The notes under the pieces were generated by a model. It had not been told where the DNA came from, ran no database searches, and worked only from the letters and a program-made list of their open reading frames with translations. From a virus: a DNA stretch of 64,000 bases. Shown in pieces: positions 589 through 47,561 of this stretch. Location of the stretch: the IMG/VR virus record IMGVR_UViG_3300042731_009409, positions 29,817 through 93,816 of that record. One strand, 5' to 3'. A program made the translations under genes and the position numbers. How positions within the stretch are numbered: position 1 is the first letter of the stretch; each line of letters opens with the position of its first letter.

Positions 589-1736
589 GGAGTAGCCTTT
601 CTGCAACTAAAATAACAATTGTATCCCTGGTTATTAAAAACATGCTTTACTTTCGAAAAGTAATAATCGCCATCATAAGCTGTTCCAATATTCGAAATTT
701 TATGTATTTGTCTAGACATTAAAGTTTCTGTTCCTATACATTTACAATTGTTCGCCAATATAAAATTTTCTCTATTTCTCCTGAACCATTGCTCTGCCCA
801 CAGTTTAGCTTGTTTCTGGTTTTTAAACCTTTTGTTTGAAATAGCTTCGAAAGAATAATCTCCAAAATACAGCTTTATATCACTGGCAGTTGTAAAATTT
901 CCTTTTACGACTGTTTGTGGATCGCCAGAAACCTGAATGTCTGGCGAGTTATTGTTTTCTTCTTCAACCTCTGCTTTTATAATTTTTCCTGTTTTTCTGT
1001 CCTTTGTAACAACAGATATTTTTGTTGTTGCGCCGGTAACAAGCATTTCTGGTTTAAAACTAAGCAAAGTAGTGTAATCACCATCATTATATGTGAATGT
1101 ATATTTTTTTTCCTGGTCAGTTATGTTATTTGGATTTTTAAAATGTAAATACCATTTTCCAACGCTATCACCGTCAATCCAAAAGACATAACCTGACAAG
1201 TTAGCCATACCTTGAACTAATTCATAATCAGTTACGCCTGACTTTTGAAACCAGTTGTGAGGTTCTTCTTCTGTATCGTCTATATCATATTCCATATCAT
1301 AGCGATCGGCAATCTCATATACAGCGTCGCTATATCTGTAGTCTTTAAACCTTCTTTTTTTAGACTCTTCTGGCGAACCAGTCATCGACGAATCTTTTGT
1401 ATAACCTATTACATTTATAGTTGGTATTCCCGATTCTGGAAAATCAAGAACCGGCCTTTGAATTATTACTCTACCCACATGTTTTAATGGTTCTTTATAT
1501 CCAAAATATACAGAAACTTCATTTCCAGGTTGAAAAATTTTTGCATTCGAAATCATTCCATCAGGATTGTTACAACGCAATCTTAGAACGTCGGCTATAC
1601 CATCACAACTTTCATATTCTACACTTGTAATAAAATCTTTTATATTTCCATCGACGTTTGTGTTTGCAACATCGATAGAAAATTTTGGAGCAAGCGTTTT
1701 ATCATTAACGCCATTTATATTGTCTAAAAGTGTCAT
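585..1736 (-). CDS. Baseplate hub, late control D / gp27-like protein
   Basis: FQKSGVTDYELVQGMANLSGYVFWID and YDGDYYFSKVKHVF motifs; position between tube initiator and spike. Confidence 0.85.
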   Translation of the reverse strand: MTLLDNINGVNDKTLAPKFSIDVANTNVDGNIKDFITSVEYESCDGIADVLRLRCNNPDGMISNAKIFQPGNEVSVYFGYKEPLKHVGRVIIQRPVLDFPESGIPTINVIGYTKDSSMTGSPEESKKRRFKDYRYSDAVYEIADRYDMEYDIDDTEEEPHNWFQKSGVTDYELVQGMANLSGYVFWIDGDSVGKWYLHFKNPNNITDQEKKYTFTYNDGDYTTLLSFKPEMLVTGATTKISVVTKDRKTGKIIKAEVEEENNNSPDIQVSGDPQTVVKGNFTTASDIKLYFGDYSFEAISNKRFKNQKQAKLWAEQWFRRNRENFILANNCKCIGTETLMSRQIHKISNIGTAYDGDYYFSKVKHVFNNQGYNCYFSCRKATP

Positions 1737-2500
1737 ATTATATAGCTCGTATAATCATCATCTCTTCGTTCTAGCATTGAAATACGCAAGCTTCTTTGCT
1801 CTGTTTCTTTTTTGCCATAAGCTGTTTTAAAAACATTACTTTTTTGCGTAATTACTTCGGTTCTTATAGCTTCTACAGACGGCAATTTTATTACATCAGC
1901 AACTTGTATGTTTAACTTGTCTGGATGTCTTTGTCTTATTATGTCTCCCATTTCAGCTGAACCATATTCGTTATATGTAAGCATTTCAAAATAATCTCTG
2001 GTTTTTGCTATATGATACCGAGTTTCGCCAGGTTCTTCCGATTCAAGACTATATCCTTTGTATTTGGCGAGTGTTATATCACATACAACACCTTTTAATT
2101 TGCCTGTTTTATAAGGCATCATAAAGCGCTTTGACAAACGTCGAAGTGTACACGATCCCATAGACAAATGGCCGTCACCAATTGAAAACGAAAGGATTGG
2201 CGGTCTTGTCAGAGAATTGTCTCTTTCTATCCAACTATCCAAAAGATCAATATCATCCCCGGCCTGACCGAATACAATATCTCGATTAAAAAATGTTGCT
2301 TGAAAAGAAATTGTGTCCAGTTCTCCATTCACAAATTGGCTTATTGGAGTCTGCATATTCAGAGAAACAGTTTCGGAATAATTTGACGATTTGTTTTCAA
2401 CTACATTTTGTGCAGGAAATTGTCCTTGCAATTCCTGCCCCGTATCTTTATTTCTTAAAAAGAACGTTCTTTTTCCAAATATTGCGTCAATAAGTCCCAT
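1733..2500 (-). CDS. Tail tube initiator (CIS-tube-like domain plus LysM/tail-X-like domain)
   Basis: N-terminal PISQFVNGELDTISFQATF/RPPILSFSIG; C-terminal YHIAKTRDYFEMLTYNEYG LysM-like segment; directly after tape measure. Confidence 0.75.
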   Translation of the reverse strand: MGLIDAIFGKRTFFLRNKDTGQELQGQFPAQNVVENKSSNYSETVSLNMQTPISQFVNGELDTISFQATFFNRDIVFGQAGDDIDLLDSWIERDNSLTRPPILSFSIGDGHLSMGSCTLRRLSKRFMMPYKTGKLKGVVCDITLAKYKGYSLESEEPGETRYHIAKTRDYFEMLTYNEYGSAEMGDIIRQRHPDKLNIQVADVIKLPSVEAIRTEVITQKSNVFKTAYGKKETEQRSLRISMLERRDDDYTSYII

Positions 2501-2501
2501 T

Positions 2502-5210
2502 TTAACCTCTATTCATCGGTGCTGAACCGTGCTCCAACATAGCTCTTCTTTGCCACGGAGTTGATTTAAAACCAGATCTTTCCTGTATTTCAAGTCTTTT
2601 TCTCGAACTTGCTATATTCAAAGAATCTCCATCTATAGACAAATCATTCTTTACATCAATTTGTCTTTTGTCTTCTATTATGTTCTCAACTTTTATATCT
2701 TCTCTTTTCGCCGCTTCTTTTTTTGTTGCAATCGTAGAAGCTTGTGTAGCAAGTTTAGCAAGATCCGAATTTCTTTTAGAAATGTCTTCAGGTTCTACAA
2801 GTTTTTTTGTTTTAACAATACCTATCGACTCAAGCATTTCTTCTCTTGTGTTAAAAACTTTTTCGTTGGATGGCATATTAAATAAATTTCCACTCAACCC
2901 TTCTTTTGCAAAAGTTCTAACAGCGTCAGGTACATCAATATTGAAGGCATCGCCAAGAGCCAATGCTGCCTCTATTATCAACCTTAATGGTTTTAAAACA
3001 AAATCTAATATTGCGGTTCCAAGTTTTGCTAACCCTCTTACCATATCACCAGCAAAAACTTCCTCAAATGCAATTGCAATTTTTGCAAAACCTTCGCCGA
3101 ATTGTGTAGCTATCCAATCTACCACCGGCCAAACCATTTTCATAATTGTTTCTATAATCACGCCAACAACTTTTAATAATGTCCATATTATATCAACAAC
3201 AACTTTTACAACTGTATAGATCGCTATCACAATTGATGCAATCAATGGTATTGCATATTTAACAAAAACTAAAATCGCCTGTGCAATTGCCCCTATTATC
3301 GATCCTATTACTCTTCCGACTTCCCGCCAATCTACTTTTGTTTTATCCATTTCGCCAAACAAAAACGTATATAAATCAGCAAATACAAGTTTTATGTTTA
3401 TAACTATTTCAGACCACACCTTTCCCAGTTCTTCCAAAATCGGTATAAACGCATCTTTAATACCTAGCCATAACGGTTTTAAAACATTTTGATAAACATC
3501 TAAACCCCAAGTCTTAATGTTTTTCCATACTCTAACGGCTGTTTGAAAAAACGATTCATTTTCTTTCTTAAGTAATTGCCAAGCTAAAAGTAAAGCGCCA
3601 GCAACTATAACAACAGGCCAAAACACAGCAGCCAATATGGTTCCAATTCCGGAAACAATTGATACTATGCCACCAATTATAAATTTAACACCAATTAACC
3701 CTAATATAACCGGTGTGATTGCTGCCGCTGCAATCAAAAACAGTGATGCCATTTTTGTTATTTGTCTTAATGATGTAGAACCACCAAAAGTTTCTTTAAA
3801 CCAATTTGCACCTTCTTTTATTTTTGTAGTAAGCCAATCCCAAGCATTTCCGATTGTATCTATAGCGTCTCTCAAACCACGCGCTATATCTAAAGCTGTT
3901 TGGCCATATTTTTTTACTGCATCAATGCTTATGCCAATGGATTTAGGATCTTCCGCCGCTTCATTTATTTCCATGAGCGCAAGCAATACATTGTTAAAAC
4001 CTTCTGTAAATTGCCTTAACGATGTAGCAAAGGGTTTTAGCAGTGGTTCAAAAAAGTTAACAGATAGACCTTCTAAGGAACTTTTGAGAAGCGTTACAGA
4101 ACCGGCAAAATTATCCAATCTTCTTTTGGCCATCTCCAAAGCGGCACCTTCGCCTTCGGACGATTTTTTATATTGTTCCTCAAGAGAAAGAATACTTTTT
4201 CTGCCAGCAATAGCAAGAGCATTATATGCTTTTGCTCCTCTTTGGCCAAACACCTCAGAAATAATCGCTTGTTTTTCAACAACGTCTTTTATTCCTGACA
4301 TTTTTTTACTAAAGTCGTCAACAATATCAGCAACTTTTCTTAAACTACCATCACTGTTTGTTAATTCTAATCCAAATTTTTTTAATATTTTTTGAGCTTT
4401 CTGAGAAGGTTTGGCAAGTTTAATCATCATATTTGAAAATGCCGTACCACCAATAGAACCTCTTAAACCAGCATTTGCAGCAGCCGCGAACAGAGATGTT
4501 ACTTCTTCTATCGACAAATTTAAAGATTTTGCGCTTGAAGCGCCATAAACAAACGTTTCGCCTAAAGACAATATATTTGTGTTTGCGGTTGCACTTGCCA
4601 AAGCCAAAACATCCGCAATGTGGCCAGCGTCACTCCATTCCTTGCCCATGCCTTTTACTACTCTTGCAACAACGTCGGCACTCTGTCCCAATTCTATTCC
4701 GTCTGCTGCCGCTGCATTCATAACGCCACCAAGAGACGCTACAATCTCAGTCGGTCTTGCCCCTGCCCTTGCTAAGTATTCCATACCTTCGCCTGCCTGT
4801 GAGGCAGAGAACACGGATACAATACCCATTCTCTTTGCCTCTCTAGACAGCATTGACATTTCTTCCCCGGTGGCTCTGGATACGGCACCAACGGCCGACA
4901 TTTGTTTTTCATAGTTTATCGCTTGGTTTAAACCTGCACCAATGGCAAGAGATAGAGGGGCAAAACCCAATCCGACACTTCCAATCCCTGACGCTATTTT
5001 CGATGCACCCGATGATACACCAAGAGCCATAGCTTTCATTTTGGCTGTTAATTGCGACGAGGATTGAGATATTTTACTCATAGAATTTGGAACTGTATTT
5101 GTAATATTTACAAAACGACTATATGATTCTCTTGCTCTATCAACAGAAGAAACCATTTGTCTGGTATCAGTGGAAAAAATTGAACCTAAACCAATTTTTT
5201 CAAAAGCCAT
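2502..5210 (-). CDS. Tape measure protein (TP901-type core)
   Basis: YEKQMSAVGAVSRAT...ADVLALASATANTNILSLGETF...AGLRGSIGGTAF; 902 aa, helical and hydrophobic. Confidence 0.95.
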   Translation of the reverse strand: MAFEKIGLGSIFSTDTRQMVSSVDRARESYSRFVNITNTVPNSMSKISQSSSQLTAKMKAMALGVSSGASKIASGIGSVGLGFAPLSLAIGAGLNQAINYEKQMSAVGAVSRATGEEMSMLSREAKRMGIVSVFSASQAGEGMEYLARAGARPTEIVASLGGVMNAAAADGIELGQSADVVARVVKGMGKEWSDAGHIADVLALASATANTNILSLGETFVYGASSAKSLNLSIEEVTSLFAAAANAGLRGSIGGTAFSNMMIKLAKPSQKAQKILKKFGLELTNSDGSLRKVADIVDDFSKKMSGIKDVVEKQAIISEVFGQRGAKAYNALAIAGRKSILSLEEQYKKSSEGEGAALEMAKRRLDNFAGSVTLLKSSLEGLSVNFFEPLLKPFATSLRQFTEGFNNVLLALMEINEAAEDPKSIGISIDAVKKYGQTALDIARGLRDAIDTIGNAWDWLTTKIKEGANWFKETFGGSTSLRQITKMASLFLIAAAAITPVILGLIGVKFIIGGIVSIVSGIGTILAAVFWPVVIVAGALLLAWQLLKKENESFFQTAVRVWKNIKTWGLDVYQNVLKPLWLGIKDAFIPILEELGKVWSEIVINIKLVFADLYTFLFGEMDKTKVDWREVGRVIGSIIGAIAQAILVFVKYAIPLIASIVIAIYTVVKVVVDIIWTLLKVVGVIIETIMKMVWPVVDWIATQFGEGFAKIAIAFEEVFAGDMVRGLAKLGTAILDFVLKPLRLIIEAALALGDAFNIDVPDAVRTFAKEGLSGNLFNMPSNEKVFNTREEMLESIGIVKTKKLVEPEDISKRNSDLAKLATQASTIATKKEAAKREDIKVENIIEDKRQIDVKNDLSIDGDSLNIASSRKRLEIQERSGFKSTPWQRRAMLEHGSAPMNRG

Positions 5211-5419
5211 TATTTTTTACCTTTTTTAAGCATTTTTTCTTCGTCTTTCAGTTGTTTGCTTAAGCGTTTGAGATACCATTCTCTTTCCACAAATTCCATT
5301 TCCATTATTGACGAGTAATCCATTCCCTTCATGCAATAAGTTAATGTAAAAACTTGTTCCAATAAGTCGTCAAGTTTGCTTATTGGGAAGAAATTCCGAA
5401 AAAATTGGTATACTCCCAT
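5210..5419 (-). CDS. Tail assembly chaperone, downstream (T-like) frame; probably reached by -1 frameshift
   Basis: EQVFTLTYCMKGMDYSSIMEMEFVEREWYLKRL resembles gp51/DUF6760-like chaperone tails; lies in the -1 frame of the upstream ORF. Confidence 0.75.
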   Translation of the reverse strand: MGVYQFFRNFFPISKLDDLLEQVFTLTYCMKGMDYSSIMEMEFVEREWYLKRLSKQLKDEEKMLKKGKK

Positions 5420-6189
5420 GGTATAGTTCTTATAAATTTAGTTTTACAATTGTCGCAAACAGCTTCTATTGATAAATCTGGACCAAGCCTATTTTGGTCG
5501 ATTTTGTTTGACAACGTTTCTATATCTGCCTTTCCCATCTCATCAAGTTCGTGATCGACCAAATTTATACTTTCCTTTTCTTCATTCAGGCCAATTATGT
5601 GCGAAACAAATATTTTTGCTTTTAAGTCGCCAAAACCTTTCATGTTTTTATCCGTGAAAGATTCATACGAATTCCATCTTGACGGTGCTAATCTGAATTT
5701 ATTTATCTGTTTTTTTCTTATTTCAAATGGTTCTTTCAATTCATAAAACCATTTCGATTCTTCGAAATCACTGAAACAAGTGTTATCTATACTGCCAACA
5801 TCACCCTTAAATACAAATTCGTTTCCACACGCCCTTGTATTTGGACATGCAAGTTTAATGTCTATTTCAGGACCAAGAGATTTATATCTCATATAACAAT
5901 ATAGAAACATAACATCACCGGAAAACATGGTCATTATCTTTAAGATCTTCTCCTCTATTGATAATTTTTCAAAATCCCATGGTCCAAGCCTTGTAAACAT
6001 TGTCCCTATAAGCATTGCAACAAATCGGCCTGTGGTAGCATCTTTATTTTTTTCTGCCAACAGGCCGATTTCGCGTTCTTGTTTCATTGTCCAACGTTTA
6101 ATTGAAAATGTTTTGTTGTACGAATTGCCATCTCTAATTCCTAATGGCAATTCGTTCATGTCTTTTATTATCCTGGTTTCTTTTGGCAT
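5380..6189 (-). CDS. Tail/baseplate assembly chaperone (G-like, T4 gp26-like, Zn-binding Cys pairs)
   Basis: Between tube and tape measure; CPNTRAC and CDNC Cys pairs. Confidence 0.75.
   Translation of the reverse strand: MPKETRIIKDMNELPLGIRDGNSYNKTFSIKRWTMKQEREIGLLAEKNKDATTGRFVAMLIGTMFTRLGPWDFEKLSIEEKILKIMTMFSGDVMFLYCYMRYKSLGPEIDIKLACPNTRACGNEFVFKGDVGSIDNTCFSDFEESKWFYELKEPFEIRKKQINKFRLAPSRWNSYESFTDKNMKGFGDLKAKIFVSHIIGLNEEKESINLVDHELDEMGKADIETLSNKIDQNRLGPDLSIEAVCDNCKTKFIRTIPWEYTNFFGISSQ
5398..5404 (-). other. Predicted -1 ribosomal slippery heptamer T TTT TTC
   Basis: Minus strand reads AAT TTT TTC GGA in frame 0; a -1 shift gives TTT TTT CGG AAT, the frame of 5210..5419. Confidence 0.75.
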
Positions 6190-6243
6190 TTAGCTATCTC
6201 CATTTAGCACAATAGGCTTATGTTAGATCTGCTTTAATAAAAA

Positions 6244-6684
6244 TTACGGAAGGGGCTCAACACTATCAGCAGAAGCGGTCCACTCTATTAATTGTGCTTC
6301 GCCGTCATTTCCCATTTCCGAATCGGGTAAATTTCTTTTTGTCAAAAACATTCCATCTAAAAAATAACTTCTAACTGCCGTTTCAGATGCTGTTTTATAT
6401 GTCAATGTAGCAGGCCTTTTGTATGTTGGCGCTGAGTTTTTACATTCTAACCACCACTCCTCTAGAGCCAAAACTTCAACTGCATGGTGCAGAGGAATAG
6501 AAAAAGTGAATTCTACAGGATTCGAATCACCACCACTTGCCTTTGTGTTATCAGGCAAATCAACGGTTTTTAATTCTTCCTCTATATTGCCGTGCATTGT
6601 TACGGTCAAATCAACCATACCATTAACACTGAGTGTATATTTGTTCTTCGCTGCGTGATCCGGAAGGATTAATCCTTTTAACAT
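6244..6684 (-). CDS. Tail tube protein (T4 gp19-like)
   Basis: LEEWW...YKRPATLTY...SYFLDGMFLTK...IEWTASAD; downstream of sheath. Confidence 0.85.
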   Translation of the reverse strand: MLKGLILPDHAAKNKYTLSVNGMVDLTVTMHGNIEEELKTVDLPDNTKASGGDSNPVEFTFSIPLHHAVEVLALEEWWLECKNSAPTYKRPATLTYKTASETAVRSYFLDGMFLTKRNLPDSEMGNDGEAQLIEWTASADSVEPLP

Positions 6685-6697
6685 AATTTACCTCCCT

Positions 6698-6919
6698 TTA
6701 TTCGATCGTAAACTGAGTGGTTACAGATGATGCTGACGAATCGGTATGGTCAGCATCAGTTTCTGCATTATAGTCTGTTATTAATTGGTTTAGGGCGGTT
6801 GTCAAAGCTGCAACTTGTGTTGCAATTGCCGCAATTGCATCATACAGCGTAGCAGTGCCGTGTGATTTGTCCAAACCCGCTCCAGCGTCGCCAATAATCT
6901 TTTTTATACTTACGGTCAT
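6698..6919 (-). CDS. Small hypothetical virion protein with coiled coil
   Basis: 73 aa between sheath and tube, with GGAG RBS. Confidence 0.65.
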   Translation of the reverse strand: MTVSIKKIIGDAGAGLDKSHGTATLYDAIAAIATQVAALTTALNQLITDYNAETDADHTDSSASSVTTQFTIE

Positions 6920-6931
6920 TTTATGCTCCTT

Positions 6932-9214
6932 TTAATTAGCAGAATCAAAAATTCCTTGTTTTCCAATTTCTATAATAAATCTTTCAACTGTATCGGCCAA
7001 TCTTAATGAAATTGATGCATTAAAATCACCTTGGGCCATCGTTGCATCAGTATTATTTTCGCCATCGATTTTGATTATACATGCTTCGGAAAATGTATCT
7101 CCGCGAATTGCATTTTTCTTTCTCCATTCGGGCAAGAAAAATGATCTTAGCGATGATTTTGTTGGCCCCCACAAGTTAGAATCATTTATTTGGAAAATGA
7201 TCCAATCGTAATTTTCAGAAAGAACGTGCTCGTAATAAGACATCTGCTCGCGTTGATGTTTCCATTTCCAGGTAGAATCCAGATATAAAGTTCTATCACC
7301 CCAAATAATATAATTTCCCTTTACCTTTTTGATAACAGAAATCCCAACCGGGTTTAGACTTTCTTCGTCAAGCAAAGTGTTGCCGGTAGTCAAAGAAAGA
7401 ATTTCTGGCAACGTTGCGTCAATACCAGCTTGCGCTTTATGATAACCCTCATAATCTCCAGAAAACCTTGCTTCACGACCATGAACCATACCCGTATTCG
7501 TAACAAGTTTTCTTTTTCCTTCTCCGCTTCCTAGTGGATCGGCAACATAACAGTAAGATGGAAATGAACAAACGGCAAAATCATTTCTTCCATACGTGTC
7601 ATTTATTTGAGAGATCGCACCAATTTCGGTTGTTATGTTTGATGGAATTTCGTATCTGTATTGATGGTTTTTTGCTTCTGCATATGCAACTCCCGCCTGA
7701 GCGACAGTTGTAGAAGTTACACCAGGGGTGGCCATTTTTACTAAACCAGCATTGGTTCCTTTGAGTCTATTAAACGGACTTGAAGATGTATCCCACGCTT
7801 GTTGTGTATAATCACTATCTGCAATATCTGCATTGCCGTCAATCCCGCCAGCCAATTCCGTTGTTGCAACAACCATAAATTGATCGTCTGCTTCAGAAAT
7901 CGAAGTCATATCAGAACCATCAGCAACGGTTATAGTGTTGTATGCATTTGATACAATTCTGTATTTTTTCAGTTTTTCATTCGCTTTATCTGGATACAAA
8001 TAACCATTTGCATATTCGCCATTTTCCAGAGGCTTATAATACACAATAATTACGTCTGCAGCAACACATGCAGTTGACCCAGCCGTGATTGTAAAAGGAG
8101 GAACAAATCTGTGACCAGAATCAAACTCTGTTCCAAAAGTTATTGTCCCGAGAGAACCAAATTCAGACGAAACAACACCGCCCTCTGTTGCCGATGTCAT
8201 TGTAATCGTAAGCGTTTGTCGTACCATTTCGGCGTTAACAGTCCCCAAAGCAATTGTAGGGTCGCCAGTTGCGCCAGACAAATCCATATAATGTATGTTT
8301 GCTGTCAAAATAGTATCTGTTACGCTTGAAACAGTTCCATAATAATTTGCTGGACGAACGTTTGCTACGTGAGCACCAGTCCAAAGATCTTCAGCTTCGA
8401 TTTCATAATTCGAATCATCGTTGTTTATGATCGAAACCCAATATTTTGTCGAAGTTGGGTCAGTTGACAAATCAGAATATTTTTTGACAAACTCGCCATC
8501 AACATAAACTGATAACGAAAATTCTGTGTCCGGATTTTGTTCGCCGTCCCCAATTTCAAAAGAAACCGCTTTGTCGTCATTGTCTAAAAACAGAGTATAA
8601 CCGGTTTCAGAACCAGCGCCTAAATCAGTGTCCATTGTTTGATCTGCCGCAACCTGGATAACACCGGCAGAAGTATTTCCAATAATCGGATATTGAGTAT
8701 TTGCAACACCTTCAAGTTCTACATATCCGCCTTTCCATTGATCTGTTACCCATGTAGTAATACCAGTTGTAATTTCTGTTTCATCAATATCTGCTACGTC
8801 CGAAACATCGCCATCATACTTTTGTTTTTTTCCACCCCAACGGCCACCGTTATGAGCTTTGATTTTTCCCATAGCAACAGGAATTACACCATCTTTTCTC
8901 GCATATATAGTTTTTTCAGCTTGAACTTCGTTCCCATCAGTTACTCTAACCAAGTACAAACCACCAGCGCCATTGGCAATCCTGTAATAACTAAAGCAGT
9001 TGTCAGGCAATAGCGAATCGTCTATGTAAGATCCGCATTTTTTCAAAAAACTTGCTCTGCTTTGACACTGTATTAATTCACCGACCGGTCCTTTTTCAAG
9101 CAAACCGGCATAACCACACCAGCCATATGGTGCAAGCTCAATGCTTTTTTGGCCAGATTTTTCTATTATTACTGTGCCAGCGCCCCTAGTAGGTCCAAAA
9201 CGTCTTTGAGCCAT
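6932..9214 (-). CDS. Tail sheath protein
   Basis: GLLEKGPVGELI N-terminus; LNPVGISVIKKVKGNYIIWGDRTL and IIFQINDSNLW C-terminal sheath motifs. Confidence 0.95.
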   Translation of the reverse strand: MAQRRFGPTRGAGTVIIEKSGQKSIELAPYGWCGYAGLLEKGPVGELIQCQSRASFLKKCGSYIDDSLLPDNCFSYYRIANGAGGLYLVRVTDGNEVQAEKTIYARKDGVIPVAMGKIKAHNGGRWGGKKQKYDGDVSDVADIDETEITTGITTWVTDQWKGGYVELEGVANTQYPIIGNTSAGVIQVAADQTMDTDLGAGSETGYTLFLDNDDKAVSFEIGDGEQNPDTEFSLSVYVDGEFVKKYSDLSTDPTSTKYWVSIINNDDSNYEIEAEDLWTGAHVANVRPANYYGTVSSVTDTILTANIHYMDLSGATGDPTIALGTVNAEMVRQTLTITMTSATEGGVVSSEFGSLGTITFGTEFDSGHRFVPPFTITAGSTACVAADVIIVYYKPLENGEYANGYLYPDKANEKLKKYRIVSNAYNTITVADGSDMTSISEADDQFMVVATTELAGGIDGNADIADSDYTQQAWDTSSSPFNRLKGTNAGLVKMATPGVTSTTVAQAGVAYAEAKNHQYRYEIPSNITTEIGAISQINDTYGRNDFAVCSFPSYCYVADPLGSGEGKRKLVTNTGMVHGREARFSGDYEGYHKAQAGIDATLPEILSLTTGNTLLDEESLNPVGISVIKKVKGNYIIWGDRTLYLDSTWKWKHQREQMSYYEHVLSENYDWIIFQINDSNLWGPTKSSLRSFFLPEWRKKNAIRGDTFSEACIIKIDGENNTDATMAQGDFNASISLRLADTVERFIIEIGKQGIFDSAN

Positions 9215-9222
9215 ATTACCTC

Positions 9223-10461
9223 CTAAATTATAGTGATAGACAAATCACCAGCAATATTAAAACTTTGTACAAGTTCATTAGTTTCATCACTGTAAGAAAA
9301 TACAATATTTTTTACCAAAAATCTAAAAATAGATGAAAATACTCCAGAATTTTTTCCTCCTTGTCCAGTAAAATCAGAGCTTATAAACCAATTATAAGAC
9401 TCGTCCAAACCAACTAGATTAAGTTTTTCATTTTCTTCGAATAATTTTTGTATAGAATCTTGCAACCTTTGCAAATCAAAAGAACTGTTTGTTATAACCG
9501 AAACTATAAACTCATAATCTCTCTGCCTTGATTTTATTATACTTGTAGCAGTGTAATTGAATTTGTTTCTAACAGAAGTTTTAAAGGAAGCCGGAATGTT
9601 CTTTAAAACTTCCGTGTTCAATATATGGATAGCTGGAACTTTGCTTACTTCTATATAATCGTCATCAGTCGTAAATGCCACCAAAGGTTTATATGTAAAT
9701 TTTATCCAAACTTTTTTATCTTCTGAAACAGTTGTATTAAGCGTTATTATTTTTGTGTTGGAATCATAACTTGAATATATATCGGTGTATTTGCTTGGAT
9801 CGTCAGTGTAATTAAAACAGCTGTCGATTGCAATTATTTCATAATCTGTGTCAAGTTCGAAATCGTTTAAGTCAATTGTGTCACTATCGTTTGGCATTAC
9901 AATTATGTGATCAGATATTGGTCTTAATTCTTTCAATTTTGGGATTATTGAATTATATATAAGGTCGTCTTGAAAATCTATTGTAGATTCGTATAAAACC
10001 CTTATCTCGTAAATTTTTGGAGTATATCTAATATCATTGGAAGTTAAATTTATTATTATTTGTAATTTCTTTTCTGTTGCATCAAACGAATTTATATTTT
10101 CTGCAATTTCATCTTCTGTATTCCAGTCGGTCGTGTTTATTTCCCATGTTGCACCGTTCCAATAATACTCGTTTGTACCATTCCCGATTCTAAAATTATA
10201 TCCTGTAAGTTCTGTATTATCATAATCTTTTGTTATATCTCCCAAAACATCAAAACCAATAAATCTAACAACACTGCCAGGATTAAAAACCCAACTTTTA
10301 ACATAAAGATCTGAATCAGTTGGATATTCCTTTGTACTTTCGTTATACAAAAGTTGTATACAATTGTCACTTGGATTTAATCTGGTATCAGTTCCCAATT
10401 CTATTTCACTTCTATTTGTTTCGTAAAACAAAAATCTTTTTACTATTTTTTTGACTATCAT
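9223..10461 (-). CDS. Tail completion/terminator-like protein with N-terminal extra domain
   Basis: Position between neck genes and sheath; C-terminal beta-sheet pattern (KVPAIHI...RDYEFIVSVIT). Confidence 0.55.
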   Translation of the reverse strand: MIVKKIVKRFLFYETNRSEIELGTDTRLNPSDNCIQLLYNESTKEYPTDSDLYVKSWVFNPGSVVRFIGFDVLGDITKDYDNTELTGYNFRIGNGTNEYYWNGATWEINTTDWNTEDEIAENINSFDATEKKLQIIINLTSNDIRYTPKIYEIRVLYESTIDFQDDLIYNSIIPKLKELRPISDHIIVMPNDSDTIDLNDFELDTDYEIIAIDSCFNYTDDPSKYTDIYSSYDSNTKIITLNTTVSEDKKVWIKFTYKPLVAFTTDDDYIEVSKVPAIHILNTEVLKNIPASFKTSVRNKFNYTATSIIKSRQRDYEFIVSVITNSSFDLQRLQDSIQKLFEENEKLNLVGLDESYNWFISSDFTGQGGKNSGVFSSIFRFLVKNIVFSYSDETNELVQSFNIAGDLSITII

Positions 10462-11099
10462 GTCATTGATACCAATTCTTTATAGGCTGATTTGAATGCT
10501 TTAAACCAGTTATCAATCAAAACATTTTTTATACCGCCATCTTTAAATGCCTCATCAACAAATTCTCTTGGGGGGATTATTATTTTTGTAGTATTGTTAT
10601 TTAGAGGTTTCCATTTTTTAAAATAACCAAACAAAGTTTTTGCACGTCCTGTCAATTTCGATGAATCTAATTTGCCTTGACTTGCGCTTGCTAACACCAA
10701 AAATAATCCTCTCATTTTTTCAGTAACGCTTATTGTTTTTCCATAATGCACTGTCAAAGCAATATTGTAGTTTTCACTGGTTCTCAATACACCGACAAAA
10801 ACAAAATCTAAAAAAGGATTGTTTGTACCAAGCACTTTCGATGTTACCGATTTAAACAAAGTCGCCCCTGGTTCAAATCCAACCAACGGTTTGTTATCAC
10901 CCTTTATAAGTTGTGTTAATTGCGCATTGTCTTCAAATTTTCCACTCTTTATAGTATTTCTAAGATGTTTTTCATAAATTTTACCATTAAGTCTACTAGC
11001 CGTTCTTATATTTTTTCTAACTATTTTATTAAGCACATTTGTACCTAGTATTTTTTCTAGTTTTTTCCAATTTTTATCTTTTTTAAAAATAGTTTTCAT
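10458..11099 (-). CDS. Neck/virion morphogenesis protein (Mu gpG / HK97 gp10-like)
   Basis: KGDNKPLV...TLFKSV and IIIPPREFVDEAF motifs. Confidence 0.7.
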   Translation of the reverse strand: MKTIFKKDKNWKKLEKILGTNVLNKIVRKNIRTASRLNGKIYEKHLRNTIKSGKFEDNAQLTQLIKGDNKPLVGFEPGATLFKSVTSKVLGTNNPFLDFVFVGVLRTSENYNIALTVHYGKTISVTEKMRGLFLVLASASQGKLDSSKLTGRAKTLFGYFKKWKPLNNNTTKIIIPPREFVDEAFKDGGIKNVLIDNWFKAFKSAYKELVSMT

Positions 11100-41895: not shown

Positions 41896-42297
41896 TTAAA
41901 ACCCCCAATTCCAAGTTTTAGTAATTGGATTATAAACCATACCTTTATTGTCATCTTCCTTTTCTATTCTACAATTAAGTATCTTGTCTTTTGCTTCCGC
42001 AAAAGTTAATATATTATTTGTTCCTGAGTAAAAATATTTAAACATTTTAAGTAATCCTTGTTTTGTTGTCCTGGTGTAATAGTGACTTAAATAATTGTCT
42101 TTCAGGAGCAAAACATTATACGTACCAAATCTTGGGGCATATTTAGTCGGTTTACCCACACCTTTCGCCCAAACAAAGTCGGTATTTTCTTCCAACCACT
42201 GGAGAATTTCTTTAAGTTCTTCTACCGTTCTATATTCGATTAATATTATCTCTTTTAGTTGGTTTATTTCACTTTTTCTGTGTATATCAGTTCTCAT
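41896..42297 (-). CDS. Hypothetical protein, paralog of 49191..49553
   Basis: EILQWLEENTDF and GMVYNP..WNWGF shared; start moved from 42330 to MRTDI at 42297. Confidence 0.75.
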   Translation of the reverse strand: MRTDIHRKSEINQLKEIILIEYRTVEELKEILQWLEENTDFVWAKGVGKPTKYAPRFGTYNVLLLKDNYLSHYYTRTTKQGLLKMFKYFYSGTNNILTFAEAKDKILNCRIEKEDDNKGMVYNPITKTWNWGF

Positions 42298-42336
42298 TCT
42301 TTTCCCCTTTGTTTGTATTTCCCGACTCATATTATG

Positions 42337-42364
42337 AATATGACATAGCGTTTGGCTGGTGCAA
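42337..42364 (-). promoter_or_regulatory. Class A repeated promoter
   Basis: TTGCAC-N16-CATATT. Confidence 0.7.
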
Positions 42365-42367
42365 GTA

Positions 42368-42910
42368 TTATTTTGATTTTATTAATATGTCGTTCTCATC
42401 TCTCACCCAAGCTTTTCCAAATGGTTGATTTTTATAATGCGAGCCAATCCCCTGTAACAGTTTTAACCGAAGCACTTCCTCCGCTTCCATACCGAGATGT
42501 TTAGCAATTTGTTTTTCTTTCCAACCTAGTGTTAACAATTTTTCTACCATATCCCCCATTAAATCTATTTGATGTTTTCCTCTAGCCCGATTATGTCTTA
42601 TCGTTGACGCCATGCGATCTTTTATATTTTTATTTATAACAACAATAGGAATTTTCTCGCATTTAAATTCTCTAGTCAAAACTATAAAACGATGGAATCC
42701 ATCTACAACTATATATTTATTTATTTCCGAATCAAAATAAGTAACTATAGGTTGCGTAACACCATCCTCAGAAATAGAGTGTTTCAGTAAAGATAATTCC
42801 TTGCTTGCAACTTTGTTAGGGTTATAATCATTTGAAATAACTCTGTTTGATTCTACCATTTTAACTTTCAAAACCGGGAATTTTATTTTTTTCATAATAT
42901 TTTCATCCAT
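42368..42910 (-). CDS. ibrB: IbrB-like ParB/Srx-domain protein
   Basis: NDYNPNKVA...SISEDGVTQPIV...VVDGFHR...MASTIRHNRARGKH. Confidence 0.9.
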   Translation of the reverse strand: MDENIMKKIKFPVLKVKMVESNRVISNDYNPNKVASKELSLLKHSISEDGVTQPIVTYFDSEINKYIVVDGFHRFIVLTREFKCEKIPIVVINKNIKDRMASTIRHNRARGKHQIDLMGDMVEKLLTLGWKEKQIAKHLGMEAEEVLRLKLLQGIGSHYKNQPFGKAWVRDENDILIKSK

Positions 42911-43983
42911 TTTTCTTTTATATTTTCTGTTTTTTCTTTTGTTTTAGAAGTATTGACGGAAATATTGTTTTCCCAATCATTTATCAACAACTGTCTGACT
43001 TGTTGTCTATGGACATTTATATCATTAGGTTGTTTATCAAATCTATTTTTAAATCTTTTCTTCCTATGCTCGGCCATTTCTTCTAATAAAAAATTTCTAT
43101 ATTCCAACCATGATTTAAATTTTTTCGGCAATTTTTTTGCAGAATACATTTGGTGTTCTTTCGAATATATCCCTGCTGTATGGGCACCTTTTATTCTTTT
43201 TGTTAATTTATCATAATTCTCTGGTTCGAATTCTTGAAGTGTAGCCAGGCTTTTATATGATTTTTCGTGCAACAAAAAACTCACTCTAAAATCATTTATA
43301 CTTACATTTTTCACCCATAAATAATCATATATTCTATTATATTCTATATTATATTTCCCCATATATGTCCAAATATCTTCAAAAGACCAATCATAAACTG
43401 GATAGAATCTGATTGATTTTCCTTTTCCTTTTGACGACCAATTAATATTTTTTATTGCCGGATTTCTAGTTACAGCACCAAATCTATTCAAACTTTCTTC
43501 TGTTCTCAATCCGACAAGAAATGCAGTTTTTTTATCTTGGATTCCTTCAAACCAATCCATAAAATCATAAAATCTTTCTGGTGCATTTGGTTCGCTGTGT
43601 ATTGCTATAGAATCTTTTTCTCTCAACCAATTTTCGTTTTTTCCCCAAGCATAAAACCATTCGCTTTCGTAAGATGTTGCATTTGTCATTTTTATTGGTA
43701 CCTGATACCAGTAAGGTTCTACATTTTTTTTATTCATTATTTGTTTTACAACCTTTATGCTAGAATCATATTCTGCTTCTTGATCCAAAAAAAATACCTT
43801 AATAATTCTGTCAGATTCTAAAGCAATTTTATACGCTATTTCAAATACAACATGACTATCTTTTCCGCCCGAAATTGATACTATTATGTTTTCATATTTA
43901 TTGAAAATCCATCTTATTCTTTTTTTTGCCGCTTCTAAAACGTTACAATTTATATATAATTTTCTACCATCTTTATTTTTCAT
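42892..43983 (-). CDS. ibrA: IbrA-like PAPS-reductase/PP-loop protein (DUF3440-type)
   Basis: VSISGGKDS, FFLDQEAEY, LVGLRTEESLNRF, YPVYDWSFEDIW. Confidence 0.9.
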   Translation of the reverse strand: MKNKDGRKLYINCNVLEAAKKRIRWIFNKYENIIVSISGGKDSHVVFEIAYKIALESDRIIKVFFLDQEAEYDSSIKVVKQIMNKKNVEPYWYQVPIKMTNATSYESEWFYAWGKNENWLREKDSIAIHSEPNAPERFYDFMDWFEGIQDKKTAFLVGLRTEESLNRFGAVTRNPAIKNINWSSKGKGKSIRFYPVYDWSFEDIWTYMGKYNIEYNRIYDYLWVKNVSINDFRVSFLLHEKSYKSLATLQEFEPENYDKLTKRIKGAHTAGIYSKEHQMYSAKKLPKKFKSWLEYRNFLLEEMAEHRKKRFKNRFDKQPNDINVHRQQVRQLLINDWENNISVNTSKTKEKTENIKEKWMKIL

Positions 43984-44998
43984 ATTTCCACAACTCCTTT
44001 GTATAAGAATCTATTTGATTTAATTCATTGTTTATTAAATTGAACAAATATTTGTCTACATTTGAATCGCCCAATATGTGAAAAACATTTTTACCTTCTG
44101 TCAACGTCATAGTGTCTAGAAAATAATAACTATTGGTTATTGGGCTTTCCATATATATAACATTTTGTATACCTGACAGATCAACATTGCCCAATTGATA
44201 AGAAATGGCTTTTGTATTCCTTATTTTATTTTTTTTTATTAATTTGTTTATGTTATTAGCATAATTTGATAGATTTGTATAAACAATCGTATTTTTCTTT
44301 AAATTCAACATCAACTCTAATAAAAACTCAAGTCTACTTTGATCTGCATGTGCTAAATCTGCCAATTTTGTAATTATTCTTCTATAAGACAAATCGGATT
44401 CAAAAAGACGTTTCTTTAATTTGGCATATTTTTTTTTCTCGTCATCGGTAGTATTAAATTTTTTTATTATTCTTTTAGTTGAAAAAAATTCATAATCTAT
44501 TTCTACATAATCTTTCGTCTTATACGCCAGCAAATCAGAATCGTGACAATGTTTTATTTTTCCGTTCCAATATTCTTCATAATTTTCTCTAAAAGCGTAC
44601 CAATGAGGATAACCTAATATTTGCCTCCCTATATAGCAAAATGTAGTATATATATATTCTTTTGATATTGTAAACGGAACTATATCTGTTATATAAGCAT
44701 TTTCTTCACCACACCTCATACTCAATCTCTGCAAATTTTGAAACTTTGGACTAGTTATTTTTGGATACCTGGTGGGGTTCTCCAACATTATTTTTACACC
44801 ATCACCAACCAAAGAATTTATATGCAACCAAACATCTTTATCATTTATAGATTCGTATGTGGTTTTATAAATTCCATCCAAATTAAAATTTTTTCTATCT
44901 AAATTTTTTGGATAGATGTATATTCCATTATTTTTTTCTAAAATCTTTTTTATAAAATCTTCTCTTCTTTTTTTAGATTTTGAAATAAAAATTTTCAT
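43973..44998 (-). CDS. Degenerate SNF2-like helicase paralog
   Basis: RQILGYPHWYAFRENYEEY parallels HKILGYRSFYSFANNHLEY of the adjacent SNF2; no Walker A/B visible. Confidence 0.65.
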   Translation of the reverse strand: MKIFISKSKKRREDFIKKILEKNNGIYIYPKNLDRKNFNLDGIYKTTYESINDKDVWLHINSLVGDGVKIMLENPTRYPKITSPKFQNLQRLSMRCGEENAYITDIVPFTISKEYIYTTFCYIGRQILGYPHWYAFRENYEEYWNGKIKHCHDSDLLAYKTKDYVEIDYEFFSTKRIIKKFNTTDDEKKKYAKLKKRLFESDLSYRRIITKLADLAHADQSRLEFLLELMLNLKKNTIVYTNLSNYANNINKLIKKNKIRNTKAISYQLGNVDLSGIQNVIYMESPITNSYYFLDTMTLTEGKNVFHILGDSNVDKYLFNLINNELNQIDSYTKELWKYEK

Positions 44999-46374
44999 AA
45001 TTCTTCAACTATTTTTTTTATATCATCAAAATTTTTACATTTTTCTAAAACTTTTCTAAATGTTTCAGAAGTATCTCTTTTTTTAGATATATTTGAACTT
45101 ATTTTGTCTTCGATACCACAATCAGCCCAAATACTAATGTAAAACACTTCGTTTTTTTGTCCTATTCTATGAATTCTATTTTCAGCTTGTATTCTATCTG
45201 AATATTTAAATTTATTATCATAAAATATACAATAAGAAGCATTTGTTAAATTCAAACCATAACCTCCAACACCATATGTTGCAACCAATATTCTGCCATT
45301 TTTTTTCCATTTTTCTATAACCGTATTTCTTGTTATATGGTCTATATTTCCGTTTATCAAAAAACAATTTTCAAGATTATTATAAATATATTCTGAACAT
45401 TTTAAATATTTGGTAAAAATTATAATTTTATCAGTTTTTTTTATTTCTTTTGTTATTGTTTTTAGCATACGAAATCTATTGTCAAAACAAACGGTTTCAC
45501 CATCTTCATTTATATATATCCCTGAAACAATTTTTTGTAAAGTAGAAAAAAGTTTAAATATATAAAAAGAATACATATATTCTTCACATGAACACATTTT
45601 GTCCAAAGCCAATTCTTTTTCTATTTCATAAGTCTTCCTTTGTAACTCTTCTAAATCAAAAATCTTATTTATATAATTTTTGTCTGGCAAATTCACATAT
45701 TCTTCTTTGGTAGCCTGGAAAATAAATGGTTTTATTTTGTTAGTCAATGTGTCTATATTAAAACTTCTAACAATCAAACCGGGATATTTATCGGAATACT
45801 CCAAATGATTATTTGCAAAACTATAAAAAGATCTATAACCAAGTATTTTATGACTTAAAAACTTCATTTGTGAAAACAAATCTACTATTCCTTGAGACAA
45901 TGGAGTTCCTGTCAATATAAAGCGATACCTTGATATAGATGATAATTCAGTTATCCTTTTCGTTCTTTTGCTGTTGTGTGTTTTTATATACAAAGATTCA
46001 TCAACAATTACAAATGTCTTTTCTGTAACCAAATTCGAAATAGAAAAATATACATTATTACTACTGCTAATTGATTCTATTCCAACACCATACCAATCAT
46101 ATTGCCTATTCGGTTTTTTCGAATAATCGAACAAATACAGATCAGGTTCGATTAAGTGTTTATTCAATTCGCTTTCAAAAGTTTTCAACAAAGAAACGGG
46201 ACAAAACCAAATTACTTTATCAATATTTTTTTGCCTTTGTTCTATAAGCAAAAACGCAGTAAATGTTTTGCCCAGACCCATATCCATAAACAAACCACCT
46301 ACTTTATTTTTTTTCAAATATTTTAACGCTTTTATTTGATGTTCAAGGGGTTTAGTTTTCAAACAAACTTTCAT
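44995..46374 (-). CDS. SNF2-family helicase/ATPase
   Basis: FMDMGLGKT, VIVDES, LTGTP, GGYGLNLT, QAENRIHRIGQ. Confidence 0.95.
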   Translation of the reverse strand: MKVCLKTKPLEHQIKALKYLKKNKVGGLFMDMGLGKTFTAFLLIEQRQKNIDKVIWFCPVSLLKTFESELNKHLIEPDLYLFDYSKKPNRQYDWYGVGIESISSSNNVYFSISNLVTEKTFVIVDESLYIKTHNSKRTKRITELSSISRYRFILTGTPLSQGIVDLFSQMKFLSHKILGYRSFYSFANNHLEYSDKYPGLIVRSFNIDTLTNKIKPFIFQATKEEYVNLPDKNYINKIFDLEELQRKTYEIEKELALDKMCSCEEYMYSFYIFKLFSTLQKIVSGIYINEDGETVCFDNRFRMLKTITKEIKKTDKIIIFTKYLKCSEYIYNNLENCFLINGNIDHITRNTVIEKWKKNGRILVATYGVGGYGLNLTNASYCIFYDNKFKYSDRIQAENRIHRIGQKNEVFYISIWADCGIEDKISSNISKKRDTSETFRKVLEKCKNFDDIKKIVEEL

Positions 46375-46978
46375 TTTTTATATCAGTATTTATTTCTACA
46401 TTTCCCTTTTTTAAAATAGAGTCGATTTCTTTAATACGTTGTACCAACCTTTCTCTTTCCTTTTTTAATGCTTCGGGATTGATGCTATTAGGTTCTATTA
46501 TATCTATGCTTGCCCAACATTTTTCTTCGCGCTTTATTTTTTTTGCTATGCCAAGCGGAATATCTCTCAGCTCTATTGTAGAATTTTCATCGAGCGATAC
46601 ATACCAGTTTTTTAGTGAACCTGCCGAATCCACATTGCCATTTTTCAAAATAGCTTTCCCGGACATTTTAGCACCAGAATCTCTTCCATAAGCTCGCGCA
46701 ATTTCTACCGGTCCACAAAATAATGCTTTTCTATATCCCGACTCTATTTTTGTGTTGTTTTTTAGTATTATACAACAATTTTCTTCTTTACCGGTTCCGT
46801 CTACACCAAAACAATCTAAAAGAACGTCCTTTATATCAGATTCGTCTCTTTCATCAAAAACCCAGCACTTGTCGATCGAATTCCATTTGCCATTTAGGTT
46901 TTTGGCAGTTGATATAAAATTTTTATTGTATGGCGTATACGTAAATAACTTACCATCTTTTTTTTTCAATTTTACCAT
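46352..46978 (-). CDS. Protein with N-terminal HARP-like domain
   Basis: TPYNKNFISTAKNLNGKWNSIDKCWVF. Confidence 0.65.
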   Translation of the reverse strand: MVKLKKKDGKLFTYTPYNKNFISTAKNLNGKWNSIDKCWVFDERDESDIKDVLLDCFGVDGTGKEENCCIILKNNTKIESGYRKALFCGPVEIARAYGRDSGAKMSGKAILKNGNVDSAGSLKNWYVSLDENSTIELRDIPLGIAKKIKREEKCWASIDIIEPNSINPEALKKERERLVQRIKEIDSILKKGNVEINTDIKNESLFEN

Positions 46979-46995
46979 TGTTTTATATTTTATGA

Positions 46996-47493
46996 TCAGT
47001 TAGCTTCACAATCACCAAAACAGTATGTTTCACACTTTTCACAATACCCAAAGCTGTTGGACAGCTCTGTTTCTTTGCAATCTGACTTTTTGTGTGCAAC
47101 AATCTCATTCCAATCAATAAACACGGAAAATGTACCGCCACCACACCACATACAATTAACAACCGCAACTGATATGGCTTTGGCAACAGAAACTTCTTTT
47201 TTGTCTAGCGTTGAACCAATTTTTTTGACAAAACCGTAATTATTATCGTTACGAATAGCAATGTTTCCAAATTTTTTTTGTAAGTTCTGGAAACATTCAT
47301 CTAATGATATACCATACAAATCGGTACTAGGTACCGATTTGTCATTGTCGACCGTACCATCATCTTTCAAAACAAGTTCATTCCAAAAATAGCCAGCAGC
47401 ATTTCTAGGACAGCCATCATAATCATCCGGGATAAGGTTTATTGTTTCGCGTTTCATTTTACTTTCTCCCTTTGTTTGTGTTTTGCTGTTCAT
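46996..47493 (-). CDS. Hypothetical protein with Cys pairs; start probably MKRETI
   Basis: CMWC, CEKC; first gene after class A promoter. Confidence 0.6.
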   Translation of the reverse strand: MNSKTQTKGESKMKRETINLIPDDYDGCPRNAAGYFWNELVLKDDGTVDNDKSVPSTDLYGISLDECFQNLQKKFGNIAIRNDNNYGFVKKIGSTLDKKEVSVAKAISVAVVNCMWCGGGTFSVFIDWNEIVAHKKSDCKETELSNSFGYCEKCETYCFGDCEAN

Positions 47494-47499
47494 AATATT

Positions 47500-47527
47500 A
47501 TTATGACACGGTATTTGGTTGGTGCAA
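47500..47527 (-). promoter_or_regulatory. Class A repeated promoter
   Basis: TTGCAC-N16-CATAAT with TG extension. Confidence 0.75.
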
Positions 47528-47561
47528 GTATTTTTCTTTATGAAATATCAAGAGCAATTCT

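Follow-up and report, generated by a model that had tools for sequence, protein, structure and literature searches.

A phage cassette of an Snf2-family ATPase, a dead Snf2 paralog, IbrA and IbrB as a candidate system for DNA modification

The cassette and its borders

We analyzed a stretch of 64,000 nucleotides (nts) from an uncultured phage (positions 29,817 to 93,816 of the 108,355-bp IMG/VR record IMGVR_UViG_3300042731_009409; hereafter, the window) and examined a cassette of six co-oriented minus-strand genes, g1 to g6, that lies from 47,530 to 42,368 between two copies of a repeated promoter-like motif (Table 1). The cassette encodes an active-type Snf2-family ATPase (g3), a degenerate paralog of the same family (g4), an IbrA-type PP-loop protein (g5) and an IbrB-type protein (g6), preceded by two small genes (g1 and g2). 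The genes overlap at four of the five junctions. A gap of 17 nts separates g1 from g2, and the overlaps are 23 nts for g2/g3, 4 nts (ATGA) for g3/g4, 11 nts for g4/g5 and, for g5/g6, 19 nts with the listed start of g6 or 4 nts (ATGA) with the start that matches its homologs, 42895. The open reading frames (ORFs), the strand, the coupled gene order and the bracketing by motif copies were as described in an earlier note on this DNA.

Four copies of the 17-nt motif TACTTGCACCANCCAAA, all of them on the minus strand, were found in the window, where 0.06 would be expected, and those at 47514-47530 and 42351-42367 bracket the cassette. When the four copies were aligned, conservation extended through the leader and the ribosome-binding site, and the motif presumably acts as a promoter. 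Since the motif copies bracket the cassette, the genes overlap and no convincing terminator was found inside the cassette, it is plausible that g1 to g6 form a single transcription unit.

Two starts in the ORF list probably need revision. The listed start of g1 (47493) directly follows the -10 element, and translation more likely begins with the ATG at 47457, which is preceded by GGGAGAAAG, so that the protein would have 153 amino acids (aa) instead of the listed 165 aa. For g6, of which the homologs align from residue 6 onward, the start is most likely 42895, giving 175 aa. The listed starts of g1 (window 47491-47493) and of the next downstream gene, 41896-42330 (window 42328-42330), both fall in the shared promoter and leader cassette, so that the apparently shared 5′ end of these unrelated genes consists of promoter, leader and ribosome-binding site and is non-coding. 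No Pfam family was matched by g1, g2 or g4, and a nucleotide search of 50,697 phage records with the whole cassette gave no match.

Table 1. Genes and promoter-like elements of the cassette, followed by associated genes in related loci (L numbers, with coordinates in each locus) and in cultured phages
Feature	Location	Strand	Description
g1	46996-47493 listed; 46996-47457 from likely start	minus	lineage-specific small protein, Cys-rich C-terminus
g2	46352-46978	minus	208 aa, phrog_18108
g3	44995-46374	minus	459 aa, active-type Snf2-family ATPase
g4	43973-44998	minus	341 aa, predicted dead Snf2 paralog (pseudo-ATPase)
g5	42892-43983	minus	363 aa, IbrA-type PP-loop ATP pyrophosphatase
g6	42368-42910 listed; 42368-42895 likely	minus	175 aa from likely start, IbrB-type ParB/Srx fold
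Promoter-like cassette upstream of g1	47500-47530	minus	TTGCAC 47527-47522, 16-nt spacer, TGtCATAAT ending 47500; then conserved 5′ leader and ribosome-binding site
Next promoter-like copy	42337-42367	minus	begins right past the g6 stop codon; marks the end of the unit
Free-standing U genes	L007 5538-6617, L008 4308-5528, L009 1837-3207, L003 4632-5588, L004 3962-4786, L014 914-1961		upstream of IbrAB-linked Snf2
Small GNAT acetyltransferases	L004 7594-8013, L005 7624-8004, L007 10092-10511, L009 5492-6160, L010 7588-7986, L013 4051-4467, L014 3382-3852, L020 1042-1470		beside dead Snf2 or between IbrA and IbrB
Triads in Flavobacterium phages FCV-1/FCL-2	gp07-09		Snf2, IbrA and IbrB genes
Triad in Streptococcus phage CHPC877	gp27-29		Snf2, IbrA and IbrB genes

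An active-type Snf2 and its dead paralog

The g3 product matched the Pfam domains SNF2-rel_dom (PF00176, E 1.7e-25) and Helicase_C (PF00271, E 1.8e-14) and carries the motifs GLGKT, DES, TGTP and QAENRIHRIGQ. Across seven g3 orthologs, GLGKT, CPVSL, DES, TGTP, GGYGLNL and QAENRIHRIGQ are all kept, and motifs I, Ia, II, III, V and VI and the two RecA-like lobes of an Snf2-family ATPase are thus present. Orthologs with 37-44% identity were found in every related cassette. In one of them (L010, 5866-7591) the Snf2 gene is split over two reading frames near 6452-6477, which could be a frameshift or an assembly error.

The g4 product proved to be a homolog of g3. The peptide parallel between the two proteins that the earlier note had pointed out is real (BLASTP E 1e-4 over 126 residues), and a profile of 51 g4-family sequences aligned with that of seven partner Snf2 proteins with a probability of 98% (hhalign E 1.7e-13, 323 columns). 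The AlphaFold2 (AF2) model of g4 had a predicted local distance difference test (pLDDT) score of 94.3 and a predicted template modelling (TM) score of 0.91, and the top 50 Foldseek matches in the PDB were exclusively Snf2 ATPase cores, including those of ISW1, PBAF, INO80, Mot1 and CSB (E 5e-09 to 5e-07; TM score by query mostly 0.5-0.68). Two RecA-like lobes, the Snf2-specific inserts and homology to Snf2 are therefore all found in g4.

The catalytic motifs, on the other hand, have been lost throughout the family. The Walker-A lysine (K7) is present in 51 of the 51 sequences and the first Walker-B acid is also retained, while both glycines of the P-loop are missing, the catalytic glutamate is gone (DE became [E/D]N, with Asn in 49 of 51), TGT of motif III became [I/L/V]-x-D (Asp in 51 of 51) and both arginine fingers disappeared, R400 being replaced by Leu and the R403 position being a gap. 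The Walker A GxGK[ST], Walker B DE and motif VI arginine fingers of an active Snf2 ATPase are thus lacking in g4, and a Pfam helicase domain was not matched either. Because an Snf2 fold is combined with the loss of these motifs, g4 is predicted to be an Snf2 pseudo-ATPase with both lobes. It is probably dead for ATP hydrolysis, and nucleotide binding may still be possible. The earlier description of the 341-aa protein as an SNF2 parallel without Walker motifs is in accordance with these data.

There were 67 relatives of g4 at 37-50% identity, none of them with a Pfam domain. An exhaustive search of 1.84 billion representative proteins with the family profile gave about 36 clusters (50% identity) at E up to 1e-30, and the weaker matches included shorter dead clades as well as active Snf2 proteins like those of the partner type. 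The dead copy is derived from the partner Snf2 subfamily. A tblastn search of the 50,697 phage records with g4 and a scan of viral contigs with the single g4 protein found nothing, alignment-based scans with the g4 family found four viral loci and one genome locus, and the family profile gave a chance match alone (E 0.44) among PDB sequences. The family is unnamed, and in all the cases seen it is encoded directly upstream of IbrA. A literature search returned no paper on the dead-Snf2 family or on the combination of Snf2 with IbrA and IbrB (IbrAB) as a unit.

The two upstream genes lie outside this conserved module. The earlier note had counted both as parts of the cassette and called the 208-aa product of g2 HARP-like; BLASTP and jackhmmer found no relatives of g1 or g2 in the related loci. 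For g1, no Pfam or PHROG family and no reliable match in the Atlas were obtained. The g2 protein belongs to a small family (phrog_18108, E 1.7e-28), other members of which occur without Snf2 or IbrAB neighbours. In its AF2 model (pLDDT 81.9), residues 1-63 fold as a beta-beta-alpha-beta-beta-alpha domain, which is followed by a beta-rich middle domain and a C-terminal helix. With VIA-align, residues 1-63 matched best the damage-recognition domain of XPB (Z 6.5, root-mean-square deviation 2.5 with 55 aligned residues, and Z 6.1) and also the N-terminal domain of UvsW (Z 5.0), top matches that lie under the reliable range of Z 8 and are tied with ACT-like folds. The HARP fold is said to be the fold of these XPB and UvsW domains, and the leads for g2 in the Atlas, of low TM score, were viral Snf2 N-termini and HARP clusters. 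No match to the Pfam HARP family (PF07443) was obtained even at E up to 5, DUF5710 at E 0.1 being the sole match, and Foldseek with the g2 model found nothing in the PDB at E up to 0.001. HARP-like is thus a weak lead for g2 rather than a result.

At the position of g2, other cassettes have a different Snf2-associated protein, designated here the U family, which consists of an N-terminal zinc ribbon and a domain of about 190 aa. The U domain is similar to the N-terminal parts of viral Snf2 proteins, and three loci (L013 992-3046, L010 5866-6501 and L005 4025-5689) encode it as an N-terminal fusion to the Snf2. Clostridium phage phiCs5676-1 has a member of the family as well (gene 0028), and none was found in the genome of the window's own phage. 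Profile comparison of the g2 and U families was non-significant (E 0.1-0.3).

IbrA, IbrB and the comparison with known systems

The g5 product matched PAPS_reduct (PF01507, E 3.4e-15) followed by DUF3440 (PF11922, E 2.4e-11), which is the architecture of IbrA (COG3969-type), and its PP-loop SGGxDS is intact. Residues S38, G40, K41, D42 and S43 of the loop were invariant in alignments of both eight and nine IbrA sequences, and G39 was invariant in the former and not in the latter. The g6 product matched ParB_N (PF02195, E 2.6e-08) and phrog_2159 (E 1.1e-59), and contains the nucleotide-binding motifs of IbrB and the ParB/Srx fold, DGxHR and an arginine-rich motif, with invariant D70, G71, F72, H73 and R74 (DGFHR) and N107, A109, R110 and G111 (NxARG). 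The two proteins share the defining domains of the known IbrA/IbrB pair (PAPS_reduct with DUF3440, and ParB_N) as well as the usual overlap of the two genes. In two other IMG/VR loci (L026 and L027, about 5300-10500), two tandem IbrA-IbrB pairs follow one Snf2 gene and a GNAT gene, and the catalytic pair appears to have been duplicated. The literature search found no mechanistic work explaining the chemistry of IbrA and IbrB, in agreement with what had been said at the outset; one mention of COG3969 (PMC8272295) was set aside as an apparent misprint for the CusA COG.

PP-loop proteins of this kind are compared readily with the DndC of phosphorothioation systems, as the earlier note had done. 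The analogy fails on its defining point. No conserved cysteine column was present in the IbrA alignment, and the only Cys of g5 is not conserved, so that both the cysteines for a [4Fe-4S] cluster or sulfur relay, as in DndC, SspD and BrxP, and the C-terminal catalytic cysteine of CysH (ECGLH-type) are absent. The similarity of g5 to DndC was limited to E 2.5e-04 over 62 residues, with E 1.5e-09 for BrxP, and the scores were far under the NCBIfam cut-offs for the CysH type (for example, 32 bits versus a cut-off of 165 for TIGR00434). DndC-type phosphorothioation by IbrA was therefore rejected as unlikely from the alignment, together with CysH-type reduction. Since SGGKDS is invariant and a conserved cysteine is lacking, the general reaction of PP-loop enzymes is left, in which ATP would be split to AMP and PPi and an oxygen of the substrate adenylated.

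The nearest solved relatives of g5 are CysD, FAD synthase and PAPS reductases, all of which are distant. CysD is the nearest by sequence (PDB 1zun, E 1.1e-05). Like IbrA it is a PP-loop enzyme, and it works in a complex with a partner of P-loop fold, as IbrA may do with dead-Snf2. However, this ATP sulfurylase has an active GTPase, CysN, as the partner and sulfate as the substrate, and the similarity to IbrA spans about 55 residues only.

The list of parts also raises the question whether the cassette is a phage-borne defence or exclusion system, which would mark or damage the DNA of competitors, or mark self DNA for a restriction partner as in Dnd, Ssp, type 4 BREX, DISARM and Dpd. DndBCDE, SspABCD and the BrxP-containing type 4 BREX share with the cassette the logic of a PAPS-reductase-like ATP pyrophosphatase, a ParB-like protein (DndB) and a motor ATPase, and copies of the module are found in bacterial chromosomes and prophages. 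With PADLOC 2.0, g3 gave generic matches to ZorD, DpdE and DrmD and g5 to BrxP and DndC. Nevertheless, g1, g2 and g4 gave no match and no PADLOC system model fits the cassette. Unlike in Dnd, Ssp and BrxP, IbrA has no conserved cysteine, hence no Fe-S cluster or persulfide site for sulfur chemistry, the cassettes have no cysteine desulfurase, and the motor is Snf2 rather than SMC-like. Moreover, the cassettes share no conserved nuclease or other effector, and phages that lack lysogeny functions commonly carry the module. We therefore consider a defence function unlikely.

A further likeness to such systems concerns g4. Inactive Swi2/Snf2-type P-loop domains have been described in PglZ of BREX and in DndH (PMC12839542), which also speaks for the defence interpretation, and these domains are like g4 in being derived from Snf2 and in lacking ATP-hydrolysis motifs within a system linked to DNA modification. 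In contrast, they are shortened single lobes inside large effectors, whereas g4 is a free-standing two-lobe protein of 341 aa paired with a PP-loop enzyme, and would thus add a new form to the inactive Snf2 domains of systems linked to DNA modification.

Gene linkage and a possible function

The association of these genes is conserved elsewhere. In ten distinct loci with a relative of g4 (from metagenomes, a Timaviella genome and viral contigs), Snf2, dead-Snf2 and IbrA are present in all ten and IbrB in nine, and in three distant dead-Snf2 clades that were checked the dead copy always lies directly upstream of IbrA with a ParB gene adjoining. The co-occurrence anticipated in the earlier note was therefore found. 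The prophage-like cyanobacterial locus on a Timaviella obliquedivisa contig (L003, identical to L012; 9034-10264) has a shortened IbrA and no remnant of IbrB by tblastn, and may be a decaying cassette.

Cultured phages carry a triad in which the same Snf2 subfamily is beside IbrA and IbrB as in the window, and the dead Snf2 gene, unlike in the window, is absent. This was the case for Flavobacterium phage FCV-1 (gp07 match E 3.5e-36), Streptococcus phage CHPC877, Lactobacillus phage AQ113 and Clostridium phage phiCs5676-1. A published list (PMC5736727) gives IbrB, IbrA and an SNF2 protein for the Listeria genes lmo1309-1311, again without the dead copy. The phage triads either follow the lysis genes or lie between those for terminase and portal, outside replication modules, and their Snf2 genes are mostly annotated as hypothetical protein in the records. 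According to one paper, IbrA and IbrB of Flavobacterium move as a group with two ORFs that lie upstream of them. In the E. coli phage copy (PhiR5_2) and in mycobacteriophage Pipefish, unlike in the window, IbrAB is accompanied by neither the Snf2 nor the dead Snf2.

These data bear on the possibility that the neighbourhood is due to chance, with Snf2 and the 208-aa gene forming a helicase pair of the replication fork beside an independent IbrAB. The remoter members of the g3 Snf2 group (24-29% identity) do sit in phage replication regions without IbrAB, for example in Acinetobacter phage SH-Ab 15497. But the nearest Snf2 relatives of g3 are all linked to IbrAB, the linkage is kept in ten of ten related loci and in the four cultured phage groups at non-replication positions, and a dead copy from the same Snf2 subfamily sits between Snf2 and IbrA. 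A chance neighbourhood is thus very improbable and already largely refuted by these observations.

A survey based on IbrA was then used, which comprised 70 viral loci, 57 of them distinct; the following counts refer to the distinct loci. A dead-Snf2-type gene was present in 35 of the 57, and without exception it adjoins or overlaps the IbrA frame. Active Snf2 was also present in 13 of the 35. The dead copies of the other 22 are members of a short clade (about 270-300 aa), whereas in the long clade, to which g4 of the window belongs, active Snf2 accompanies the dead copy wherever the contig extends far enough. Snf2 without a dead copy was seen in 5 of the 57 and IbrAB alone in 17, and IbrB was present in 53. 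Several short-clade loci (L045/L046, L050, L052, L054 and L095) have an IbrB ORF of 427-586 aa or an IbrA of about 600 aa, which hints at fusions with further domains. A GNAT acyltransferase gene accompanied 7 of the 13 loci with both Snf2 and dead-Snf2 and none of the 22 with dead-Snf2 only; the cassette of the window has none. One related cassette contains an Amidoligase_2 gene (L009 4696-5385). These neighbours are compatible with a group-transfer pathway.

The earlier note had proposed an active/inactive ATPase heterodimer. What conservation singles out is instead the pair of dead-Snf2 and IbrA. Because the dead-Snf2 gene abuts IbrA in 35 of 35 loci, and 22 of these have no active Snf2 nearby, the protein looks like a subunit of IbrA, and less like one whose main partner is the active motor. 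Structure prediction for the complex of IbrA with dead-Snf2 scored 0.53 against 0.00 for the best control (with a pLDDT of 82 or more for the partners and a contact agreement of 19% or more), which the tool rates as weak support: 58 of the 80 solved complexes and 2 of the 110 mismatched pairs attain its mark, and scores of 0.60 or less come from just 7 of the 80 solved complexes and from both mismatches. In view of the strong prior from gene order, we read this score as mild support, and dead-Snf2 may, with the weak backing of the prediction, physically contact IbrA.

What the pair acts on can be approached from its partners. IbrAB might have a target other than DNA, namely a nucleotide, an immune signalling molecule, a tRNA or a protein, with the Snf2-type proteins as scaffolds or sensors. 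The substrates of PP-loop relatives are sulfate (CysD), FMN, tRNA and small molecules, the relatives of the ParB/Srx fold include the serine kinases SerK and SbnI, and IbrAB stands alone in the 17 loci mentioned above. Against this, each accessory partner of IbrAB is a duplex-DNA engine or the remnant of one (Snf2, dead Snf2 and the U family, the last sometimes fused to the Snf2 N-terminus), and we regard a non-DNA target as rather improbable. The position of the dead motor, always in front of IbrA, points to DNA as the target of IbrAB.

DNA could also be engaged for regulation. In such a role, as a regulator or a remodeller of the nucleoid, IbrAB and the Snf2 proteins together would load in a ParB-like manner, strip or block repressors or nucleoid proteins and activate silenced genes, and IbrA would modify a protein or a nucleotide cofactor. 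IbrAB reportedly activates prophage eib genes, with which the family name and annotations agree. The Snf2 enzymes RapA and Mot1 take proteins off DNA, and Mot1 and CSB are among the fold matches of g4; the cassette, in addition, has its own promoter-like motif in an accessory region. However, the invariant PP-loop and the frequent GNAT and amidoligase neighbours look like a chemical pathway rather than a plain DNA binder, and virulent phages, for which lysogenic silencing is not an issue, are among the carriers, so a purely regulatory role also seems unlikely. Flavobacterium phage FCL-2 has no integrase and no detected lysogeny (PMC4541368). Carriers without lysogeny functions favour a role in the phage's own cycle.

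Taken together, the explanation we prefer, at a probability of roughly 45%, is that the cassette is a phage operon for ATP-dependent covalent DNA modification by Snf2, dead-Snf2, IbrA and IbrB, which would protect the phage DNA. Modification of DNA is favoured because PP-loop chemistry is combined with accessory partners that are all duplex-DNA engines or remnants and with GNAT and amidoligase neighbours. The conserved core would consist of an active Snf2 translocase on double-stranded DNA, its disabled paralog, IbrA and IbrB. Since the pair also occurs alone in other phages, IbrA and IbrB would be the catalytic core, in which IbrA splits ATP to AMP and PPi and presumably, as its relatives do, adenylates an oxygen of the substrate, and IbrB serves as a nucleotide-binding protein of the ParB/Srx fold. 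Adenylation of this kind has precedents in TilS, which acts on tRNA, and DndC, which acts on the DNA backbone. The dead Snf2 would be a dedicated subunit of IbrA, a two-lobe scaffold that grips DNA without ATP hydrolysis and places IbrA on the duplex, and the active Snf2 an optional motor that moves the assembly along DNA. The output would be a covalent modification, formed in the course of infection by non-sulfur chemistry on a base carbonyl or a backbone phosphate, that could shield the phage DNA from host nucleases or other DNA-targeting defences. The DNA-modification, anti-restriction and anti-competitor roles suggested for the cassette at the outset are likewise hypothetical.

Several points weigh against this explanation. 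We know of no experiment that shows IbrA or IbrB acting on DNA, and the only genetics known to us, in which IbrAB reportedly raises the expression of prophage eib genes, fits a regulatory role too. For PP-loop enzymes, small molecules, tRNA and proteins are substrates as well. The fetched DNA of 22 of the 35 dead-Snf2 loci contains no active Snf2, with at least 5 kb on both sides in 10 of them, so translocation is not essential to the core reaction. The predicted complex of dead-Snf2 with IbrA was a weak pass only, and from the window a self-protective and an offensive role are indistinguishable.

In a more specific and tentative form of the DNA-modification explanation, which we hold to be possible yet doubtful in its entirety, IbrA seated on dead-Snf2 and helped by IbrB would install a novel non-sulfur modification after replication through adenylation, cassettes that include a GNAT or amidoligase gene would attach acyl or amino-acid groups, and the Snf2 motor would make the marking processive. 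The pair's repeated recruitment of Snf2-type engines, together with a pseudo-ATPase family locked to IbrA, makes duplex DNA a concrete and testable candidate substrate, and the cultured phages identified here as carriers of the triad are where the substrate question can be tested. For the IbrA family, these results argue both against the annotation as a 'PAPS reductase' auxiliary metabolic gene and against DndC-like phosphorothioation.

Apart from the cassette genes, the related locus L008 contains at 880-3810 a large terminase gene of GpA type with a LAGLIDADG_3 domain between two GpA_ATPase matches, which suggests the insertion of an intein or a homing endonuclease.

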